Of a DNA stretch of 64,000 nucleotides, positions 51,748 to 64,000 are shown in pieces. The notes under the pieces are model-generated. The model saw only the letters and a program-made list of their open reading frames with translations, made no database searches and had not been told where the DNA came from. The position numbers and the translations under genes were made by a program. The stretch comes from Methanobacteriota archaeon (GTDB lineage: Archaea; Thermoplasmatota; E2; DHVEG-1), in the NCBI GenBank assembly GCA_963769885.1, contig CAVYNH010000005.1:96001-160000 (forward strand), in the 5' to 3' direction. Positions within the stretch are counted from its first letter, which is position 1. The number at the start of each line of letters is the position of its first letter.

Positions 51748-53460
51748 TTGAAGCTGACCCTGAAGGTTCTCATCGGCAACCTCTTGTTCATTGCGGTCTT
51801 TTTCCTCATCATTGCGAGGATTTTTTCCGTCGTCTCTGGCGCCGTGTTCCCGGTCGATATTGTGACCTCGGATTCCATGAGTCCGTCGCTGATAACGGGG
51901 GATCTGGTCACCTGGTCGCCCGCGTCCATTCAGGACGTTAAGGTCGGGGATATCGTCGTCTATAAGAGCTGGCTGCACTGGCCTGACACGAAGTTCATCG
52001 TGCACCGCGTCATCGAGGTCCGCGAGGACTTCGGCAAGATCGCGCTGGTCACCAAGGGAGACGCGAACCGGTGGACCGACCAGGCTGGGCCGCATGCGCC
52101 CGAGCCGTACGTGACCGAGAAGAACTTCGTCGGTAAGGCGATCATGCTCGGCCCTGTGCCCTTGAAGATCCCGTTGGTCGGCTACGTTGGCATCCTGGTC
52201 AACGAAGGTTTCCGATTGTTGACGCAGTCCTCGGCGGCGAAAGGGACCTCGACGACGATCTGGGTCTTCACGCCCCTGACCGTGTCCGTCATCCTCCTGG
52301 TCATCGCCATCTTCCTGGTCCCTGAACGCCGGAAGACCATCCAAGAGAAAATCAGGTACTACATCCTGAGTTCACGGTCCTTGAACCTGAAGAAAACCGC
52401 CGTGTTCTTCTTCCTCCTGTTCACCGCCTTCTTCTTCATCATCCATCTGTTCGCGTATGATACGGTGACGGGGGCGGTCGGCGTCGGCGAATTCGCCTCA
52501 AAGAATGGCATGGACCTTGGGGCACTGGAGCCGGGGCAGACCGGGTTCCCTCGGGAGATCTCCGTTGTCAATCCTAGCGTTTTCCCTGTCAAAGGCATTA
52601 TCTTCGGGAGGCAAGGCATGGAGCCGCTCCTCAATCACGTCGTCTTCACGGTGGGAGCAGGTAAGATCAAGCCACAGAACATCTCCGCCTCCGTCCCAAA
52701 CGGGACCGCGAACGGCTCGTACGTCGGCGACATCGCCATCTACTCCTCCCCTCTCTGGCTGCTCTTCCCAGACGAGGTCCTACTCACGGTGTCGCAAGCA
52801 GACCCCAGCCTCGTGGTTATTATTCTGGATCTCATCAGTGCCGCGATCCTCACGGCGGTCACACTCCTGATCATCCTTGCCGCTGCCCTACTCGAGGAGA
52901 CGGCCTACGTTCTCCAGGTCAATCTCTCCTGGCACTATGCCCCACGGCCGATGCTGAAAACCCGATGGAGAGCGCGGATTGCCCATGCGCGCCTCCGATT
53001 TCGCCGCGGACTGGCGAGGAACGTCCTCTGGGTAAGCCAGGTAAACCTCGCGTCGCTGCAGGCGCGGCCGTTCCTGATCGGCGGCCTCATCGCCGTCCCC
53101 TTCTTCTTCCTCATGCAAAGCACGCTTACAGCTTTGGTGGTCGCCGCGGTCCTCGCCGGGCTGGTCGCCTACCTCTTTCGCTGCCGGCTGCGGGAAAAGA
53201 TCGTCCTTGCGGTCGTCATGTCCCTGTGTGTCTCCCTGTGTCTGCTCATGGGCAAGATCGGCTTCGACATCCTCACCGCCTCCCGCTCGGTCATAGAGAC
53301 CCTCGGGCTGGTCATGGGCGCGCTCGGGATTTATCTGCTCGTCGTCGCGTTCCTGCTCGTTCCTGTGGTCCTGACGTCGTGGGGGCTAACGCACCTCTGC
53401 CGAAATGTTAAAGAACAGCGTGACCCATTACTGGCCCTGGAGGGTGGATGCGACCTCTAA
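51748..53460 (+). CDS. Signal peptidase I (S26B) with large C-terminal membrane and extracellular extension
   Basis: SDSMSP, GDL, IVHRV, TKGDAN, followed by about 380 extra residues. TTG start with a GGAGGTG RBS. Confidence 0.88.
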   Translation: MKLTLKVLIGNLLFIAVFFLIIARIFSVVSGAVFPVDIVTSDSMSPSLITGDLVTWSPASIQDVKVGDIVVYKSWLHWPDTKFIVHRVIEVREDFGKIALVTKGDANRWTDQAGPHAPEPYVTEKNFVGKAIMLGPVPLKIPLVGYVGILVNEGFRLLTQSSAAKGTSTTIWVFTPLTVSVILLVIAIFLVPERRKTIQEKIRYYILSSRSLNLKKTAVFFFLLFTAFFFIIHLFAYDTVTGAVGVGEFASKNGMDLGALEPGQTGFPREISVVNPSVFPVKGIIFGRQGMEPLLNHVVFTVGAGKIKPQNISASVPNGTANGSYVGDIAIYSSPLWLLFPDEVLLTVSQADPSLVVIILDLISAAILTAVTLLIILAAALLEETAYVLQVNLSWHYAPRPMLKTRWRARIAHARLRFRRGLARNVLWVSQVNLASLQARPFLIGGLIAVPFFFLMQSTLTALVVAAVLAGLVAYLFRCRLREKIVLAVVMSLCVSLCLLMGKIGFDILTASRSVIETLGLVMGALGIYLLVVAFLLVPVVLTSWGLTHLCRNVKEQRDPLLALEGGCDL

Positions 53461-53481: not shown

Positions 53482-54504
53482 ATGCCTCTTTTAAAGCGAA
53501 AGACTGTCCCCGCATCGCCCGTCTCATCCGACTCGCCTGCACTCTCGAATCAGTTGTCTCGATTTCAGCGTCGAAAGCCCTCCGCGACCCCGCAGGAGCC
53601 GCAGACGCCCAACGAGACGACCTCGTCTGATGCCTACTCATTCCTTGACTCCGAGCAGCCTGACCAGAACGCCTTTGAGGACCTCGGAGACCTACCAACG
53701 ACCACGGCGCCGAAGCGGCCGGCCTACTGGCAGAAGGAGATGGCCGGCAAACCCGTGTTCCTCGAAGACACCGGGGAGCGGCTCGGCGAGGTCGCGGACC
53801 CCATCCTCGACGCGGAACAGCACCTCATCGGCTACCGGATCAAGGACAACAAGTCCGACGCCGTCCTCAGATTCCCCCTCGAGCAGTTCGACGAAGACAA
53901 GAACGGCCTCATCTTCGTCCCCAGCTGGTACAGCAAAGGTGTCAAGACCGTGGAGAAGCTGGAGTTCAAAGACCGTATCACCCCGGAGCTCATGTGGCTG
54001 ATCACGGACAACACCGTCCCGATGCAGGACCTGTACCGCGTCTTCGTCCGCCATGACGATACTATCACAGGGTACTTGGAGGAGGCCGGTAGCCTCCGCG
54101 AACTGCTCACCCAGCGCCTCCGGATTCTGGAAAAAGAGCGGCTGTCGCTCAAAGAAAGCCTCATGGACCTCACCGAGAAACGCCTCATCAAGGACATCGA
54201 CCGCAGGGAGTTCTCCGACATCATCATCGAGCACCGCCGCAAGGTCAACGTCCTCGATAACAACATGAAGAAATGCAGCGACCTGCTCGCCCGTCTCCAA
54301 AAAACGTCCTTCGGCATGCTCAGCCTCGCACTCCACGCCGCCACCGCACCCTCACCAGGTCCTCACACGGACCGCGACCCGACCACAGACCAGGCCTACC
54401 AAGAGAAATACAACCAGCTCAAACAACAGTACGCCAAACTGCACGAGGGCTACGAAGAACTGAAGACCGCCGTGGAACGCCTCCTGACCAGCACCGACGT
54501 CTAA
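53482..54504 (+). CDS. PRC-barrel plus coiled-coil protein, CdvA-like
   Basis: GKPVFLEDTGERLGEV..I.GY PRC pattern, LIFVPSW, then two helical hairpin/coiled-coil segments. Confidence 0.75.
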   Translation: MPLLKRKTVPASPVSSDSPALSNQLSRFQRRKPSATPQEPQTPNETTSSDAYSFLDSEQPDQNAFEDLGDLPTTTAPKRPAYWQKEMAGKPVFLEDTGERLGEVADPILDAEQHLIGYRIKDNKSDAVLRFPLEQFDEDKNGLIFVPSWYSKGVKTVEKLEFKDRITPELMWLITDNTVPMQDLYRVFVRHDDTITGYLEEAGSLRELLTQRLRILEKERLSLKESLMDLTEKRLIKDIDRREFSDIIIEHRRKVNVLDNNMKKCSDLLARLQKTSFGMLSLALHAATAPSPGPHTDRDPTTDQAYQEKYNQLKQQYAKLHEGYEELKTAVERLLTSTDV

Positions 54505-54597: not shown

Positions 54598-57500
54598 ATG
54601 TCGGACGATTTTCATACAGAAGCCAAGGAAAAACCGACCACCGGCCAGGACACCGCGCACTTCATCCTCAACAGCCGTGGCGAACTCCTCGACGCCAGCG
54701 ACGCCTTCTGCCGCCTGGCCGGCAGACGCCGCGATGCCCTCATCGGCACCACCCTGGAAGACGCTGGACTTCTCACCGACATCTCCGCCAAGGCGCTCCG
54801 CCGCCGCCACGTCTCTGTTCTCATCGGCAAAGCACCTCACACCTACACCCTCGAAGTCCGCGCCAAAGACGGCGGCATCTCCCTCCTCCACATCGACTCC
54901 ATCCCCTACCTCAAAGACGGCAGACTCATCGGCGAGCTCGCCACCGTCCACAGCATCACCCCCCAACCCCCATCCACCGACCAACCACTCACGACCATGA
55001 CGACTGAGCCGCGCCCAGGCACCGACCCCACCGCGATCCTCCAAGACCGCCTCGAAGACCAACACCACAAACTCCACCAGACCCAACAGAAACTCCGCAA
55101 GGCACTTCTCGACCTCGAAACCAAGACCTCACACATCCAAGGGCTCCAAGACGAGCTCGACGACACCGAACAGCAGCTCCGCCAACGCCTCCACGACCTC
55201 GACGACGCCACCAAACAACTCAGACAACGCCAATTCCTCCTCGACCAAAAAGATCAAGAACTCACCCGCCTCCGCGACGACCTCACCGCCGAGACCAGCC
55301 AACACCAAACCAAGAACATGGAACTTGAACACCTCAACGCCAGGCTTCAAGACGCCCTCACCACCGCCGAAAACCTCGGCGAAGACCTCACAGAGGCCCA
55401 GCGACTCCTCCTCCAGAAGACCCATGACGCCGACCAAAAGGCCGCCGAGATCAAAAACCTCACCGGCCTCCTCGAGGACACCCGTCAGACCCTCGCCGCC
55501 CTCCAAGCCGAGCAAGAAGGCATCATCGAAACAAACCAGGCGCTCACCAGCCAACTGACTCAAACTCGGCAGGACGCCGAGACCACCGCTGACACGCTCC
55601 GGCAGACCCAACAGCAGCTCCAAACCAAAGACCAAGACCTCGCCGCCGTCCAGGCCGCGCTCCACGCTAAAACCCAAGCACTCGCCGAGCAAACCATCCA
55701 CTTCACCGAACTCCAAGAAGCCGTCCGAAGCCTCCAGGAGACCATCGCCGAACTCCGTCAAGCCCACACCGACAACGAAACCGCCCTCGCCGGCCTCACC
55801 CAACGCCTCACCGAAAAAGACCAAGTCCTCCAACAAGCAGCCCAGGACCTCGACCGCACCCACGCCGAAACCCACACCCTCCTCGGCAAACTCGACAGCA
55901 GAGAAAAATACATCAGCTACCAAAACAACCAGCTTGACCGCTACGTCCACCAACAAAACATACTCACACAACAACTCAACGACCTCACTGCAGCCCTAGA
56001 AAAACAGACCGCGGACCACCACGCCACTGTCCTCGCCCTCGACCACAGCCACGATGAAACCGATCTTCGCACCGCCGAGATCCGCCGACTGTCCCGCCTC
56101 CTCGCCGACGCCCGACGCCACGCCGACGCCATCACCATCGATCTCGCCGACACCAAGACCCACGCCCTCGAAACCACGGCACAGCTCCAAGACCGACTCA
56201 CCGAACTCCACGCCCTCCAAACACAGCACCACGACCAGGAGGACGCCATCACCCGCCTCCGAAGTCAGATCACCGAACGGAACACCATCATCCAACAACT
56301 CACCGACCAGGTTGAAAACCTTCACCAGGCCGCGGCAGCCGCCGCCCACGACCACGACAGCCTCGCCACCGCCCTCACCGACACGAAAGACGAGACCAAC
56401 CGCCTCCAGGACGCCCTCACCCAAAAAGAAGGCGACCTCCGAGACAAAGACGCTGAAATCACCGACCTGCGGACAGCGCTGCGGACCGCAGAACACCACC
56501 TCAAGACCATTACCCAGACCGCCACCTGCCTTGAACAAGAACTCCAGAAAAAAGACGCAGTCCTCGAACAAAAAACCGACCTCATCAACACCCTCCAATC
56601 CGACCTCGAAGACCAACACCGAGACCTCCAAGAACACCTTCGCCATGCAACCCACCTCCACACTGAGTTCACCGATACCCAACACCTCCTCGCCGACCTC
56701 CAAAAAGAGATAGCCGAAACCACCGCCGTCAGCGCACTCCTCCAAGAGCAACTCACCGCCACAACTGAGGACCGTGACCACCACGCCCAACTCCTCACTC
56801 AGACTACCCAAGACCTCCAAACCCGAACCCACCTCCTCGACACACAGACTGAGGAACTCACCCGCCTCAAGGCCGACCTCGCCAAATACACCCAAGACCT
56901 CGACCACAGCCATCAACGCATCATCGAACTCGAAACCGAGCTTGAAGAAAAAACGACGGCCCTCGACGACACCACCCGACTCCTCACCCAAGCCACACAA
57001 GAAGCCCAGGCACGCACCCAAGAGGTCAGCGAACTCACCGCCGGCCTCAACGCCCGCAACCGCGAACTCGACCAACAACTCCAACTCATCGCCACCTTCA
57101 AACAAGAATCATTCGATAACCACCTCAGCCTCACCGGACTCAACGAAGAACTCGCCGCCCGCCAGCACGAGCTCCAAACACAGACCGCAGCCCTCACCCA
57201 ACTCCAAGAAACACTCACCGCACTCCAGAAAGACAACGCAGACCACACCGCCCTCATCGCCATCCTCAAAACCGAACAAGCCACCAAACAAGCCCTCCTC
57301 GAACAACAGACCGAGGCCCTCACCAGACAACGCCACGAGCTCACCCACCTCCACGACAACCTCGACGCTCAAAAACACCTCCGAGAAGAAACAGACCAAA
57401 GACTCCACGAGACCCTCACCCAACTCCAAACCCACAAAGACCACATCTCCAAACTCTCCACTGAGCTTCTCGCCAAAAACCAACAACTCCAAACCATCGA

Positions 57501-60500
57501 ACAGACCCTCCAGCAGCACCAACACGACCTCCAAGAAAAAACACAGCTCATCCAACACACCCACCACCAACTCGCAGACCTCGAAAAAGAACTCCACAGC
57601 CACCACCAAGAAATCAACGACCTCCACCACTCCCTTGACGAACGCAACCAAATCATCGCCGACCTCACCGGCCAACTCACCGACACCCAAAGCAGCCTGC
57701 TCCAAGAGGCCAAGGCCGCCGACACTCTCAACGACAACCTCACCAACACCAGAACCCTCCTCACCCAGACCCAAGCAGAGCTGGAAACTAGCCACCACCA
57801 GCTTCACCAGGCCAAGAGCGACTGTGAACGCCTCACCGAACAGCACACCGCCCTCACCGCCGAACTCCAACGAATCACCACAGAGCTCGCCGCGCAACAC
57901 CTGGCATCCCAAAAACAAAAAACCGAACTCAAAGACCTTCAAACCGAGATCCACACCCGAGACTTCCTGATCTCCGACCTCACTCATCAACTCACCAAAG
58001 AACAGACCACAATCACCCAAAAAACCCAAGAAAACCAGACGTTAACCGAGGAGCTCGCCCGCACATCCGAACTCCTCCTCCAAGGTCAAGAATCCCTCAC
58101 CGCCAAACAAAATGAACTAACAGAGGCCACGCAGACACTCGACGAGCTCACCACCACCATCCAATCACTTAAAGAAGAGATAGAAACCCGGGACATCATC
58201 ATCAGCGACCTCACCCAACAGGCCAGTGAAGAACAATCAAAACTCGTCACCACCGCAACCCAGATCGAAGACCTCACCAGAGAACTTACCGAAACCCAAG
58301 ACAGGCTACACGGCAGCCAAACCGCAGGCCTTGCACAGGAAGCCGAGCTCACCCGACTTAAGGAAGAACTCCACGACCGCCTCCAGGACCTCGCCTACCG
58401 CAACAACGATCTCAACGACCATAAGGCTCGAATCAACCAGCTCAGCACACAAATCGAGACCCAAGCCCAGGCCCTCCAGCAGGATCAAGCAGAACTCGCA
58501 CGCCTGAACCAACTCAACCGCCAACAAGCTCTCGACCTCAAACAGGCGCGCGAGGAGACTGAAAAACAATGGATGGAATTAGTCCTCAAGAACATCGACA
58601 TCCAGGATAAAAGCGAACTTATCACCGAACTCAACGAAAAAATCACCCAAGACCAACAGATCATCACTATAGCAGAGAGCGACTTCCAGACCAAGACCAC
58701 GCATCTCTCAAGCCAAATCCAGGACCTCCAGAGTACACTGCAAAACACCCGGACCATGCTCGAACAATCCACCGACGAAATCCAAAGCCTCAACCAAGAG
58801 ATCATCGGAAAGGACCGGCTCCTCCAAGACCTCAGCCGACAACTCAGCGACGAACAGACCTCCCTCATCGAGACTGTCTCAAAAAAACACCAGCTCGAAT
58901 CGGAAGTCGAGGTACAACGACAGCACAATGAGACGCTGCAGGGAACGCTCCGTGACAAAGAACAACACCTCCACCAAATCGAGGAGGCTCTCAAGTCCAG
59001 CGAGCTTCAACTCACGGACCTACAACGGGAACTCACGGGTAAAACTCGAGACCTCGAGATCGCCACAACCGAGTTGACCGCCAGGGAGGACCATCTCGAG
59101 AAACTGCAAGCCTCCCATACTTCACTTCTCCAAGATGACGAGAGACTGAAAAAGCAACTCGAGGACCTCACACTGGAGAAGCAGAACCTGCGATCATTGC
59201 TCGACAGCATCGAACAAGGAAGCGCCTCCTCCATCATCATGACCGATGCCAAAGGCATCATCACCTCGTGGAACCCGCGCGCCGAGCAGCTGTTCAACAT
59301 GCCCGTCACCTCCGCAATCGGACGACAGCTTACAGACCTTCCATTCCTCAAAGACGCCCTCTCAAATACCGTGAACATCCTCACAAAGACCTCTGAACAT
59401 TCGATCATCATCAAGAACCAGCGGAACGAGGAGCTCCTCACGGATATCTCACGGATTCCTCTGCTCAACGACGTCGGAGAAGGTTATGGGTCTCTCATCA
59501 TCATCGATGATGTTACACCGATGGCTGGGTTGCATGCAGAACTCTGTAAAAACAAGGCGGATCTTGAGGCGCTCAGCAATCGCTATCAACAATCCTTCAG
59601 AAAAATGGCGATTGCCGAGAAGGAGCTACAGGAGAACGAAACCGAGTTGCGTGTTAAAAAGCAGGCTCTTGCTGAACAAGCCCAGGAGATTTCGGGGCTT
59701 CAGAAGGAACTCGAGCGTCATTTTGAGGTGGTGAAAACCAAGAATTCGCAGTTGGAGCAAGTGGTTAGAACCCTTCAAGAACGAGACTCGGAACTCGATG
59801 AGTTGCGTCAGAAGACCACCAATGGCCAAGACGAGCTCCTGCATGCCAAGAACCTTATTGCGAATCTGGAAAACGAGCATCATCGAACGGTCGATGAGCT
59901 GCATGATGTTTCGACAAAGTTGAAGGAAGCACAAAAGGAAATCATAAGATCCGAGGATCTATGCCAGAGGTTCCAGGCGCACCTCCTCAAGCAACAATGC
60001 GAGGTGAGCCAAAAGGAGCTTGAGATTAAGACCCTGGGGGATAGCGCTGAGAATCGGACGAGGGAACTGGAGATTGTCACGAAGCGGCTTGAGGACAGCA
60101 CGCTGCAGCTGTCGGCCTCTACAATCAGGATTGAGAGAGCGGAGAAGGATTTGAAGAAACGAGAGGAGGAAGCATTGCTTCTCCGCCAGCAGGTAAAAGA
60201 AAGGCAGACCGTACTTCTCAGGGTCACTGATGAGAGAGACAACATCGTGCAACAATGTGAAACCCTGAAGACCGACCTTGTTTCTGCTCGGAAGGACATG
60301 GAGGAGCTCTCGAGTGAATTAAAGGCGAATAAGGCATCGGTGCTTTGGTTCAAGACGGAACTTGAGGGGACGAAGGAAACCTTGCGGCTCAAGGAGAACG
60401 ATGTGCATGTGAGACTTGCAGAAGCGGAGGATCTGCGAAAACAAATCGGTGAGCTTAAGATTGCTCTTCTTGAAAGGAACCATGACGTAGAACACGTACG

Positions 60501-61575
60501 GGAGGAGGTCGAGGGCCGGCAACAGCAGATAGGCATCCAGGAGCAGATTGTGCAGGAGTTAAAGAAACAGCTTGCGGCACGGCAGGTCCAGGTGAAGCAA
60601 CGAGAGGATGAGCTGTGGCAAAAGACCCAGCTCATCGAGAATTTAAAAGGCGAGCTTGAACGTTATCAGCAGCGAATCTCGGACCTTGAGAGTTCCTCGC
60701 TGGAGCAGGAAAAGGAGGCGGCGCAACGCAGCTCGGTGCCGGCGCTGAAGACCCAGGAGATCAGCGTTTTACAGGAAGAACTGGAGAAAATCACCGAGAA
60801 GCTCCGGGAAAGGGACGGGGAAATGCTCGAGGTTCGGAAACAGTTGGAGGCTGCTCGCTTGGAGGCAAACAAGAGGAAACTGGAGGTTGAGGATCTCAGC
60901 CTCAAGTGCCGTCTAATTCAAAACGAGATTCCTTCATCTGTGATCATGGTGGATGAGAAGAATCAGATCGCAGCGTGGAACAAGAGGGCGGAGATGCTGT
61001 TGGGTGTGGAGGCGAAGAAGGCGATTGGTTGCGACTTGTTCAATTTGTCGTTCATGGAGCGGGAGCGGCTGCGGGAGGGCTACGCCCAGAGTGTCTCGAA
61101 CCGAAGGGATGTGACAATCAAGGCGATCATCTTTCCCTCGTCGAATGAGGAGAAGGCCTTGGTGGATGTCACCATCCATCCGGTATTTGGTGAGGCAGGA
61201 AATCCTATGGGTGCACTATTGGTCATGGATGATGTGACGAGCCGGGTGGCGGTCGAGGCGGAGCTTCATCGGAAGGAGGCTGAGGTCGGTGAGTTGAATC
61301 AGCGGTTGGCGGATTCGTTTAAGAAGAATGTGTTGTCGGCGTTGGAGGGGGATGCGTCGAAGCGTCAGGCGGTGGGTGAGGTGGCGCGGCCGGCGTTCGA
61401 GGATCGGACGGTGATTGCGGGGGATTTGTCGGTGGTGGCGTCGCGGCGGCCGGCTGAGGAGGGGCCGGTGGATGAAGCGTGGCAGGAGCGTGTGCGGGTG
61501 TGCGGGGAGATCGAGCGTCGGTTGGATGAGGCGGGGGTGGTGAAGGTGAAGAAGGAAAAGGAGGAGGGGAAGTAG
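54598..61575 (+). CDS. Giant (2325 aa) coiled-coil protein with three PAS domains
   Basis: PAS motifs at about aa 20-120 (ILNSRGELLDAS), 1535-1640 (IMTDAKGIITSWN...DDVT) and 2105-2215 (IMVDEKNQIAAWN...DDVT), with heptad-rich sequence between them. Confidence 0.88.
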   Translation: MSDDFHTEAKEKPTTGQDTAHFILNSRGELLDASDAFCRLAGRRRDALIGTTLEDAGLLTDISAKALRRRHVSVLIGKAPHTYTLEVRAKDGGISLLHIDSIPYLKDGRLIGELATVHSITPQPPSTDQPLTTMTTEPRPGTDPTAILQDRLEDQHHKLHQTQQKLRKALLDLETKTSHIQGLQDELDDTEQQLRQRLHDLDDATKQLRQRQFLLDQKDQELTRLRDDLTAETSQHQTKNMELEHLNARLQDALTTAENLGEDLTEAQRLLLQKTHDADQKAAEIKNLTGLLEDTRQTLAALQAEQEGIIETNQALTSQLTQTRQDAETTADTLRQTQQQLQTKDQDLAAVQAALHAKTQALAEQTIHFTELQEAVRSLQETIAELRQAHTDNETALAGLTQRLTEKDQVLQQAAQDLDRTHAETHTLLGKLDSREKYISYQNNQLDRYVHQQNILTQQLNDLTAALEKQTADHHATVLALDHSHDETDLRTAEIRRLSRLLADARRHADAITIDLADTKTHALETTAQLQDRLTELHALQTQHHDQEDAITRLRSQITERNTIIQQLTDQVENLHQAAAAAAHDHDSLATALTDTKDETNRLQDALTQKEGDLRDKDAEITDLRTALRTAEHHLKTITQTATCLEQELQKKDAVLEQKTDLINTLQSDLEDQHRDLQEHLRHATHLHTEFTDTQHLLADLQKEIAETTAVSALLQEQLTATTEDRDHHAQLLTQTTQDLQTRTHLLDTQTEELTRLKADLAKYTQDLDHSHQRIIELETELEEKTTALDDTTRLLTQATQEAQARTQEVSELTAGLNARNRELDQQLQLIATFKQESFDNHLSLTGLNEELAARQHELQTQTAALTQLQETLTALQKDNADHTALIAILKTEQATKQALLEQQTEALTRQRHELTHLHDNLDAQKHLREETDQRLHETLTQLQTHKDHISKLSTELLAKNQQLQTIEQTLQQHQHDLQEKTQLIQHTHHQLADLEKELHSHHQEINDLHHSLDERNQIIADLTGQLTDTQSSLLQEAKAADTLNDNLTNTRTLLTQTQAELETSHHQLHQAKSDCERLTEQHTALTAELQRITTELAAQHLASQKQKTELKDLQTEIHTRDFLISDLTHQLTKEQTTITQKTQENQTLTEELARTSELLLQGQESLTAKQNELTEATQTLDELTTTIQSLKEEIETRDIIISDLTQQASEEQSKLVTTATQIEDLTRELTETQDRLHGSQTAGLAQEAELTRLKEELHDRLQDLAYRNNDLNDHKARINQLSTQIETQAQALQQDQAELARLNQLNRQQALDLKQAREETEKQWMELVLKNIDIQDKSELITELNEKITQDQQIITIAESDFQTKTTHLSSQIQDLQSTLQNTRTMLEQSTDEIQSLNQEIIGKDRLLQDLSRQLSDEQTSLIETVSKKHQLESEVEVQRQHNETLQGTLRDKEQHLHQIEEALKSSELQLTDLQRELTGKTRDLEIATTELTAREDHLEKLQASHTSLLQDDERLKKQLEDLTLEKQNLRSLLDSIEQGSASSIIMTDAKGIITSWNPRAEQLFNMPVTSAIGRQLTDLPFLKDALSNTVNILTKTSEHSIIIKNQRNEELLTDISRIPLLNDVGEGYGSLIIIDDVTPMAGLHAELCKNKADLEALSNRYQQSFRKMAIAEKELQENETELRVKKQALAEQAQEISGLQKELERHFEVVKTKNSQLEQVVRTLQERDSELDELRQKTTNGQDELLHAKNLIANLENEHHRTVDELHDVSTKLKEAQKEIIRSEDLCQRFQAHLLKQQCEVSQKELEIKTLGDSAENRTRELEIVTKRLEDSTLQLSASTIRIERAEKDLKKREEEALLLRQQVKERQTVLLRVTDERDNIVQQCETLKTDLVSARKDMEELSSELKANKASVLWFKTELEGTKETLRLKENDVHVRLAEAEDLRKQIGELKIALLERNHDVEHVREEVEGRQQQIGIQEQIVQELKKQLAARQVQVKQREDELWQKTQLIENLKGELERYQQRISDLESSSLEQEKEAAQRSSVPALKTQEISVLQEELEKITEKLRERDGEMLEVRKQLEAARLEANKRKLEVEDLSLKCRLIQNEIPSSVIMVDEKNQIAAWNKRAEMLLGVEAKKAIGCDLFNLSFMERERLREGYAQSVSNRRDVTIKAIIFPSSNEEKALVDVTIHPVFGEAGNPMGALLVMDDVTSRVAVEAELHRKEAEVGELNQRLADSFKKNVLSALEGDASKRQAVGEVARPAFEDRTVIAGDLSVVASRRPAEEGPVDEAWQERVRVCGEIERRLDEAGVVKVKKEKEEGK

Positions 61576-61584
61576 GGGCTGGGT

Positions 61585-62196
61585 TTAAGGGTAGAGGGTG
61601 ACGAGGCTGTTGGTGGTGTAGGGGACGTCGAAGGTGAAGGTTTGTTGTTGTCCGGGGGTGGGGGTGATGGTGAGTTGGAGGGTGTCGTAGGGTCGTAGGT
61701 AGGTTTGTTCTGGGAGTTTGACGAGGAGGAAGCCGGCGTCTGTGTTTTTGTTGAGGGTGTGAGCGGCGAGGGCGGAGCCGTCGTCGTCCGTGATCATTTG
61801 GATGGTGAATGACCCAGGTTTGAATTGGTCCCAGGCGGGGTTGTGGAAGAGGGCATTGGTGGGCTCGTCTTTGGGGACGTCTCGGTAGGGGAGGATGAAG
61901 GCGTCGTCGGGGAGGGTGAGTTGGAGTTGTATTTTGGTGAGGTCGATGGTGCCGGTGATGAGGGGGCGGATGTGGATGGCGAGGCGTTGGATGCCGTTTG
62001 GGGTGTCGTATTTGCCGATGATTTGGTCGATTTTGAGGTAGGTGGTGAGGTCGTTGGTGATGTCGGTGACGGCTTGGTCGAGGGCGTTGTTGGCAGTGGT
62101 TTGGTTCTTGATGAAGATGGAGCCGGCGGTGGCGCCGATGGCGATGACGGAGGTGATGAGGACGATGGGGAGGAGGCCGAGGGTTGCGTCTGACAT
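61585..62196 (-). CDS. Divergent archaellin-like protein
   Basis: N-terminal hydrophobic helix, ITNDLTTYLKIDQIIG, LAIHIRP, IDLTK, DDDGS. These align by eye with the adjacent archaellin. Confidence 0.7.
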   Translation of the reverse strand: MSDATLGLLPIVLITSVIAIGATAGSIFIKNQTTANNALDQAVTDITNDLTTYLKIDQIIGKYDTPNGIQRLAIHIRPLITGTIDLTKIQLQLTLPDDAFILPYRDVPKDEPTNALFHNPAWDQFKPGSFTIQMITDDDGSALAAHTLNKNTDAGFLLVKLPEQTYLRPYDTLQLTITPTPGQQQTFTFDVPYTTNSLVTLYP

Positions 62197-62421: not shown

Positions 62422-63279
62422 ATGGAAAAACGGTATATGGAAAGGCTGGTAGGCAGGTACTGTAAAATCGTGACCAAGGAACCTGGCGAAGACCGCGCCA
62501 GTGTCGTCACAGGTGTTCTCGAAGATGTTGACTACAAAGACGGGTTCCTCATAATCGATTCCTCCCAGGGCCTCGGTTGCCTGCGCATGGACACGGTGAT
62601 TGCCATTAAACCAGGAACCAAGCGCCAACCCGAGAGGAAGCCCCTGAAAAAAAATGCCCAGGCCGAGGTCGGTATCGGCACCCTCATTGTGTTCATCGCA
62701 TTAGTCCTCGTCGCAGCGATAGCGGCAAGCGTCATCATGCAGACTGCTGAGACCCTGCAGCAGCGGGCCTATGCAGTCGGTAAACAAACCATCCGTGATG
62801 TATCCAGCGGTATTCGAATTATTGGTGTCACTGGATACACAGACGTCAACAAGACCAAGGTTGATTACCTTGCCCTCGCAATCACTCCCCGCGCTGGATC
62901 GTACGATATCGATCTGAACAAGACTCTCCTCTATCTCCAACTCGACAATTTTACTATCCTAAGCCTGAACCCGAATGCCAAAGCAGGCACGGTCGCGCAA
63001 GGCGGGGTGTTCTCGACCCTCAACCTCTCCCAACTGAACGCCACGAACTATGGGCTCATCTCTATTCATGACTCCGATAATTCAATTATGAATAGCAACG
63101 GTATTAGCACTTCGGATCAGGCAATGCTCATTGTGAACCTCACGGCGGCCCTCCCGATGACTCAGGGTCTGAGAGCAGGGGACACCCTGGAAGGTAAAAT
63201 CGTCCCCGAAGTGGGGGTTAGCGGTATCTTTGTAGTTAACGCGCCCAATGCCTTTAAATACCGCGTGGTCGAGGTTTAA
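62422..63279 (+). CDS. arlB: Archaellin (FlaB/ArlB) with 81-residue N-terminal leader
   Basis: QA|EVGIGTLIVFIALVLVAAIAASVI, VSSGI, PRAGS.DIDL. GAAGGTGA RBS before the ATG. Confidence 0.93.
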   Translation: MEKRYMERLVGRYCKIVTKEPGEDRASVVTGVLEDVDYKDGFLIIDSSQGLGCLRMDTVIAIKPGTKRQPERKPLKKNAQAEVGIGTLIVFIALVLVAAIAASVIMQTAETLQQRAYAVGKQTIRDVSSGIRIIGVTGYTDVNKTKVDYLALAITPRAGSYDIDLNKTLLYLQLDNFTILSLNPNAKAGTVAQGGVFSTLNLSQLNATNYGLISIHDSDNSIMNSNGISTSDQAMLIVNLTAALPMTQGLRAGDTLEGKIVPEVGVSGIFVVNAPNAFKYRVVEV

Positions 63280-63467: not shown

Positions 63468-64000
63468 ATGGAACGCAAGAACATGGAAAGGCTCATCGGA
63501 AACTATTGCAAAATCGTAACTAAAGAACCCGGAGACAACCGCGCCAGCGTCATCACCGGCTATGTCGAGGATGTCGACTACAAAAACGGGTTTATCCTCG
63601 TCAACTCAGCCCAAGGACTCGGGTGTCTACGCATCAACACCGTCGTCGCTATAAAACCTGGGACGATGCGACCGGATAAAAAGAAAATTTTCATCAATTC
63701 ACAGGCCGAGGTCGGCATCGGCACCCTGATTGTCTTCATCGCCTTAGTCCTAGTCGCAGCCATTGCTGCGAGCGTTATAATGCAGACTGCAGAAACCCTT
63801 CAACAACGGGCGTACGCGGTCGGAAAACAAACTATCCGGGACGTCTCTAGCGGAATCCGAATCATCGGCGTCACCGGATACACGGACACTAACAAGACCA
63901 AGATCGATTACCTTGCCATCGCCATTACTCCCCGCGCCGGATCCTACGATATCGATCTGAATAAGACCCTCCTCTACCTCCAACTCGACAACTTCACCAT
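63468..64000 (+). CDS. arlB: Second archaellin with 80-residue N-terminal leader, truncated by window edge
   Basis: Not in the ORF track. Manual translation: MERKNMERLIGNYCKIVTKEPG...NSQA|EVGIGTLIVFIALVLVAAIAASVI. Same RBS as the first copy. Confidence 0.93.
   Translation, partial: MERKNMERLIGNYCKIVTKEPGDNRASVITGYVEDVDYKNGFILVNSAQGLGCLRINTVVAIKPGTMRPDKKKIFINSQAEVGIGTLIVFIALVLVAAIAASVIMQTAETLQQRAYAVGKQTIRDVSSGIRIIGVTGYTDTNKTKIDYLAIAITPRAGSYDIDLNKTLLYLQLDNFT

Follow-up and report, generated by a model that had tools for sequence, protein, structure and literature searches.

A giant PAS-jointed coiled-coil rod encoded beside the archaellum genes of a Thermoplasmatota family, and its possible role as a tether for archaella

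We analyzed a 64,000-nucleotide stretch of DNA (the window) from an uncultured sediment archaeon of the Thermoplasmatota, corresponding to positions 96001-160000 of contig C5 in a genome that is 92% complete (G000). The family of this archaeon is probably DHVEG-1/Thermoprofundales. The subject of this report is a gene at 54598-61575 on the + strand, whose product we call the rod. The gene is a single open frame of 2,325 codons with one stop, at its end, and an element resembling a ribosome-binding site (GGTGAGG) lies ahead of its ATG. It is the longest open reading frame (ORF) in G000 and has no paralog there. Its parts are listed below, with the evidence in parentheses (aa, amino acids; HMM, hidden Markov model; dN/dS, ratio of nonsynonymous to synonymous substitution).

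54598..61575, + strand: giant PAS/coiled-coil rod gene, 2,325 aa (ORF; Pfam; orthologs)
54619..54975, + strand: PAS1, aa 8-126, in a clade of its own, with a conserved basic helix, R-H-V-S-x-L-I-G-K (family HMM; Pfam)
55018..59193, + strand: coil 1, approximately aa 141-1532, near-continuous heptads, the most length-variable part of the rod (periodicity and register analysis)
59194..59532, + strand: PAS2, aa 1533-1645, of the internal type, a paralog of PAS3 (family HMM)
59533..60900, + strand: coil 2, 456 aa here (family HMM; register analysis)
60901..61254, + strand: PAS3, aa 2102-2219 (AF2 model; Foldseek)
61462..61572, + strand: C-terminal motif (the tail), about 35 aa (conservation; dN/dS; helix in the model)

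The Pfam profile PAS_9 matched three stretches of the rod (E value, 5e-20), and an HMM made from family members agreed. The spacers between the PAS domains measured 1,406 and 456 aa. The hydrophobic period in the coils was 3.50, with a single sharp peak across 1,380 aa (power, 140). These values bear out an earlier note on this DNA, which had described three PAS domains with spacers of about 1,400 and 460 residues of nearly unbroken heptads. Most 70-aa windows of the coil scored above the 95th percentile of shuffled controls. Residues 141 to 1358 apparently share one heptad register, as the call flips solely between the a and d phases, and the stretch between aa 145 and 1559 is free of proline. 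The composition of the core is atypical: position a is 57% Leu and 16% Ile, while position d is 27% Leu and otherwise mainly Thr, Gln, Lys, Arg, and Ala. No long tandem repeat or filament-type charge repeat was detected in the rod, neither a myosin-like 28-residue nor an intermediate-filament-like charge period of about 9.3 residues; its only periods were 3.5 and 7. In the AF2 model, continuous helices enter and leave PAS3, and the C terminus forms two helices and a short tail. Foldseek placed the PAS model among PAS/LOV-type folds. A homolog search with the full protein returned generic PAS kinases only.

We found no match to HisKA, HATPase, GGDEF, or methyl-accepting chemotaxis protein (MCP) domains in the rod using Pfam and NCBIfam, and no Walker A motif. 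Hydropathy (19-aa maximum, 1.05) indicated neither a transmembrane segment nor a signal peptide. The same list of absences had been read from the translation earlier and stands in full. Inspection of the PAS alignments, at the positions where such residues are expected, revealed no LOV Cys motif or PYP Cys that is conserved and no invariant heme His. If straight, the two coils would extend over about 206 and 68 nm (0.1485 nm per residue), an arithmetic estimate that reproduces the 200 and 70 nm proposed previously. The rod is a giant, enzyme-free protein that would thus be about a quarter of a micrometre long, and its coiled coil is probably a parallel dimer. In a separate observation, the skew at third codon positions drifted from C/A-rich to G/T-rich along the gene (aa ~1300 to 1700), driving a change in composition from Thr/Gln/His to Glu/Lys/Val. 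The same shift occurs in genome G014; a possible cause is read-through from the archaellin-like gene, which is convergent with the rod gene (described below).

The three-PAS layout recurs in orthologs from many separately assembled genomes, and the rod aligns end to end with those of G023 and G034. The 48 complete family members ranged from 92 to 2,820 aa and carried between zero and four PAS domains; about half had no PAS domain and kept the tail. PAS1 forms a separate clade, while the internal PAS domains are duplicates of each other. Among the three-PAS forms, coil 1 varied from 308 to 1,453 aa. Coil 2 varied from 334 to 481 aa in orthologs, most commonly measuring 428 aa, a value shared by several genera. 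One genus (g18) holds two rod forms, of about 1,000 and 2,000 aa. We estimated dN/dS by NG86, which gives rough values. Most archaellated pairs gave 0.12 to 0.32 for the rod, and two distant, poorly aligned pairs gave 0.43 to 0.52. The internal PAS domains and the tail were more constrained (0.05 to 0.11; PAS2, 0.05 to 0.08 in two ortholog pairs). The rod family is therefore real and under purifying selection. In a single-gene tree, full and reduced rods were scattered, with a backbone too weak for event counts. The absence of the rod from G001, of the same genus, was traced to an assembly gap, since its contig stops inside the S26 signal peptidase gene of the same locus. Literature and profile searches turned up no description of the family. 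The comparison of orthologs suggested by the earlier note thus revealed a genuine family of strongly variable length with a constant archaellin-like neighbor (55 loci). None of the findings that the note had named as fatal to its proposal, namely, an output domain, a chimeric assembly, or an already characterized family, was made.

The tail is the most constant part of the family. It consists of an amphipathic helix (W..KL.I.DEIDK.L), which also appears in the model, followed by a segment resembling LKTKK. A single copy of it turned up in each of 31 out of the 53 family genomes, whereas the 347 genomes sampled outside the family but within the phylum had none; genus g55 and G013 carry a degenerate version. 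Comparison of the tail with Pfam and the PDB gave no match. Its dN/dS was 0.06 to 0.09, with synonymous divergence (pS) near 0.6. We considered whether the tail is kept as the terminator of the neighboring gene. This was ruled out because its synonymous sites are free, and the constraint must therefore act on the protein. We also predicted a complex of the tail with a small barrel found in archaellin leaders (described below). The basis for this pairing was that the barrel lies beside the rod in archaellum-less genomes, yet G019 and G024 also have it, and no rod was detected in either. The prediction scored 0.11 against a mark of 0.32 and was not used as evidence either way. As a side observation, a 92-aa member (L047:9588-9866, - strand; G084, a single-contig genome) comprises little beyond the tail and lies tail to tail with an archaellin-like gene.

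Upstream of the rod, two co-oriented genes probably form an operon with it.

51748..53460, + strand: SipW-like S26 signal peptidase, the probable first gene of the S26-CdvA-like-rod operon
53482..54504, + strand: CdvA-fold protein, 340 aa, 93 bp upstream of the rod (weak Pfam PRC/CdvA match; model; Foldseek; Atlas)
53482..53745, + strand: leader of the CdvA-like protein, aa 1-88, M-x-F-F-K-K ... I-G-F in orthologs (alignment)

In the model of the CdvA-like protein, a basic and disordered leader precedes a PRC barrel, which is followed by a coil of three helices. Its best solved match by Foldseek was the Sulfolobus islandicus CdvA filament 9S9G (E value, 1e-8; TM score by target, 0.72; 14% identity), in agreement with Atlas. 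The predicted structure therefore combines the PRC barrel and three-helix coiled coil that define the CdvA fold. The filaments formed by CdvA are double helical, and the protein recruits CdvB (PMC12818579). CdvB, Snf7, and PspA (NF041008, PF03357, and PF04012) were not found in G000; the genome does hold two tubulin/FtsZ-family genes and, separately, stand-alone PRC genes. We compared the presence of PAS1 with that of an adjacent CdvA-like gene. Both were present in 22 loci and neither in 23, while PAS1 occurred alone in 3 and the CdvA-like gene alone in none. In the PAS-less rods of about 1,000 aa from g18, the first 88 aa of the CdvA-like protein are fused in frame onto the coil (46% and 37% identity; E values, 9e-15 and 1e-11), and both the S26 gene that precedes the leader and the barrel that follows it are gone. 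To judge from these sequences, the fusion may bypass a contact between the CdvA-like protein and PAS1. The rods of G028, G032, and G110 begin with similar leaders, at the level of the motif only. Two further observations concern these genes. The S26 peptidase has a long C-terminal membrane part and is tied to the CdvA-like gene, being lost with it in PAS-less lineages. In addition, more distant CdvA-like paralogs, of 24 to 35% identity, exist in a number of family genomes (G066:C228, G064:C155, G062:C14, G031:C3, and G021:C263).

Downstream, the rod meets the archaellum genes.

61585..62196, - strand: divergent archaellin-like gene, its stop 9 bp from the rod stop, the constant neighbor of the rod in the loci read
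62422..63279, + strand: archaellin with a leader of about 80 aa holding a conserved SH3/Sm-like barrel (profile and alignment)
63468..64000, + strand: second barrel-archaellin with the same type of leader, running off the window

Beyond the window follow a two-PAS protein, arlC, arlDE, arlG, arlF, arlH, two copies of arlI, arlJ, and more archaellins. The core genes of the archaellum (arlB, arlC/D/E, arlF, arlG, arlH, arlI, and arlJ) are all present apart from the rod, which shows no match to any of them. The rod and the archaellin-like gene lay tail to tail in all 55 loci read that contain both, nearly always within about 25 bp; the 5' neighbors of the rod varied among these loci. Of the 107 family genomes, 82 had ArlDE and 17 had CheW. 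In G000, we did not find CheW, CheF, or MCP. Replacement of chemotaxis by the rod was rejected as a general rule, given that rod and CheW occur together in G026, G063, G097, G101, and G102.

Several side observations were made in the archaellum cluster. The two leaders (62422-62631 and 63468-63677, + strand) place the barrel ahead of the archaellin N-terminal helix, and the barrel is highly conserved (mean column identity, 81%; 52 copies). Prepilin processing may release it as a folded domain with a separate function. Stand-alone barrels of 66 to 127 aa occur in G003, G009, G013, G019, G024, G028, G106, and G107, where archaellins or ArlDE were not found. Between arlC and the archaellins, most family loci encode a 440-aa two-PAS protein lacking an output domain (L001:4367-5689, - strand; G000:C5:160367-161689). 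Tandem paralogs of the ArlI ATPase (two; L001:9355-12632, + strand) are kept in most loci read. Genera without the rod have, after the archaellin-like gene and on its strand, a gene of 150 to 217 aa that lacks a Pfam match (L063:9943-10422, L054:9705-10358, and L065:8589-9140).

Together, these results suggest that the rod is a noncatalytic cytoplasmic tether or scaffold, with a CdvA-fold end and a docking tail, that positions or braces archaella in one family of Thermoplasmatota. We assign this reading a probability of about one half. According to our model, the CdvA-fold protein would polymerize as CdvA does, with its basic-hydrophobic leader holding the membrane or a cell landmark, and would capture the rod via PAS1. 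The coiled coil would span tens to hundreds of nanometers, with the internal PAS domains serving as duplicated joints or side docking sites. The tail would dock on a fixed partner, most likely the archaellum base, so that the motors would be positioned, bundled, or braced, with a presumed effect on motility. The earlier note had offered a sensory filament, a ruler, or a tether. The noncatalytic rod, tether, or cytoskeletal part of that proposal gains from the lack of an output domain, the selection on the gene, the CdvA-fold neighbor, and the terminal motif, while the ruler is weakened by lengths of 92 to 2,820 aa. The note had also cast the PAS domains as ligand-gated joints or docking sites. 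Gating is weakened by the many PAS-free members and the lack, by inspection, of a conserved LOV, heme, or PYP residue; docking by PAS1 fits best, which makes this domain a candidate site for the CdvA-like protein. The interpretation was hence supported in part, and the note had not included the tail motif, the CdvA-like gene, or the archaellum context.

A number of observations weigh against a tether for archaella. The joint loss of PAS1 and the CdvA-like gene could be explained by one contiguous deletion, and related genomes do not count as independent. In G000, the leader is degenerate, with a modest hydrophobic moment. The rod is transcribed in the direction opposite to the archaellum genes, and the linkage may be historical. 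Ten archaellated loci lack a rod in the slot, and the rod is therefore not required for the archaellum. Conversely, the rod remains in G003 (one contig), G105, G106, G107, and G028, where archaellin and ArlJ orthologs were not found. The rods of these genomes lack PAS1, are sometimes broken, and gave dN/dS values of 0.31 to 0.38; in the pairs G003/G105 and G106/G107, the gene stays open and under purifying selection (0.31 to 0.36). Moreover, Thermoplasmatales in culture lack a polar cap and swim nonetheless (PMC12448462). Strict co-occurrence of rod and archaellum thus fails, while the conserved linkage to the arl cluster holds.

The persistence of a selected rod in genomes that yielded no archaellum genes also supports the main alternative explanation, in which the CdvA-fold filament and a crescentin- or Sph3-like coil form a general cytoskeleton for cell shape, polarity, or division, located near the arl genes by inheritance or through shared regulation with the motile state. 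PRC-barrel and CdvA proteins do work in division (bioRxiv 10.1101/2023.03.28.534520), and the haloarchaeal coiled-coil protein Sph3, studied in Haloferax, is needed for both rod shape and motility (PMC10869688). However, after archaellum loss, selection looks relaxed and the majority of the rods are either broken or without PAS1. Members of 92 to 274 aa are hard to reconcile with a shape filament, no 28- or ~9.3-residue charge period for staggered assembly was seen, and FtsZ-family and stand-alone PRC genes exist separately. We regard a general cytoskeleton as possible, although doubtful. A role in sensing seems less plausible still. Here the PAS domains would sense a ligand or redox state independently of chemotaxis and shift the register of the coil, and the tail would switch the motor. 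The helix-PAS-helix geometry resembles that of sensor kinases, G000 is archaellated yet yielded no CheW, CheF, or MCP in our searches, CheW is far rarer than ArlDE in the family, and a second output-less two-PAS protein lies within the cluster. Against this, about half of the complete members dispense with PAS domains while keeping the tail, five genomes combine the rod with a Che system, the PAS alignments lack the cofactor residues sought by inspection, and the signal would have to travel along 400 to 1,900 residues of variable coil.

The nearly unbroken register over more than 1,200 aa, and the 428-aa coil 2 shared by several genera, would suit a molecular ruler that fixes a distance. Such a ruler is highly improbable given the range of total lengths, the variation of coil 1 among three-PAS forms, and the coexistence of ~1,000- and ~2,000-aa forms within g18. 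Finally, the flip in codon skew might betray an assembly chimera, or the gene could descend from a sensor kinase whose output domain was lost. Both ideas are largely refuted. The flip is gradual and recurs in G014, all members finish with the tail motif and show no trace of a kinase, and 9 bp separate the rod gene from its downstream neighbor, which runs on the opposite strand. The shared layout, end-to-end alignment, and purifying selection therefore dispose of the concern about a chimera. Returning to the tether, a bolder version would have a CdvA-fold division filament repurposed without ESCRT-III as a membrane foot for a PAS-jointed rod of up to ~0.4 micrometre, whose tail grips the archaellum motor. 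This would be a genetically defined anchor resembling the polar cap, possibly with a Che-independent PAS input; we consider it unlikely in this full form.

ArlCDE lacks a membrane anchor, and a cytoplasmic anchor for archaella has been proposed (PMC8978795). For the anchoring and positioning of archaellar motors in the cytoplasm, the locus supplies expressible candidates, namely, the CdvA-fold protein, PAS1, and the 35-aa tail. They stem from a lineage in which archaellum genes are common and chemotaxis genes were mostly not found. The locus also points to use of the CdvA fold outside ESCRT division, and the rods of 92 to 2,820 aa offer a natural series for the roles of coil length and PAS joints.

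Coiled-coil scaffolds for motility or polarity are a known kind of protein, whereas we found no description of a PAS-jointed giant rod combined with an orphan CdvA fold and linkage to the archaellum. Long coiled coils are shared with SMC, Rad50, Sph proteins, and crescentin, all of which lack the PAS joints and the tail. Unlike SMC, Rad50, and ASRP, the rod has no Walker A motif or ATPase head; the SMC match reached 183 against 567 bits, in the coil only, and that to Rad50 was far below its cutoff. The Rod_CreS profile of crescentin scored 18.9 against 100 bits. Multi-PAS sensor histidine kinases (ThkA, WalK, and NifL) resemble the rod in the PAS fold and in helix-PAS-helix linkage, but the rod lacks an output domain and its linkers measure 430 to 1,400 aa, compared to tens of residues in the kinases. 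The upstream protein shares the PRC barrel and three-helix coil with Sulfolobus CdvA of the CdvABC division system (PDB 9S9G; PMC12818579). It differs in its 14% identity, its extra basic leader, the failure to find CdvB in the genome, and its being encoded with the rod by the archaellum genes. The polar cap, or ArlCDE anchor, of euryarchaea is cytoplasmic, probably proteinaceous, and a proposed organizer of the motor (PMC8978795), and arlC and arlDE belong to this cluster; the cap is a sheet seen in tomograms and is not known to be linked to this rod at the level of genes. Cyanobacterial HmpF (NF038350), a coiled-coil protein required for type IV pilus motility (PMC7002697), offers a similar setting, the archaellum being a relative of type IV filaments. 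It lacks a PAS array, and the rod scored 59 bits against a cutoff of 200, in the coil only. FrzS and AglZ of Myxococcus, together with HmpF, are established motility scaffolds whose long coil places or switches on a motor of the pilus type (PMC9811614, PMC7002697), and the proposed tether would work in a similar manner without belonging to either group. Like the rod, they carry a signaling-fold domain without catalytic output on a long coiled coil with a link to motility machinery; the pseudo-receiver of FrzS is a docking site, and the coil localizes the protein. No homology to them was detected, and the rod is archaeal and much longer, with an N-terminal PAS domain in place of the pseudo-receiver, up to four PAS joints, and a CdvA-fold partner.

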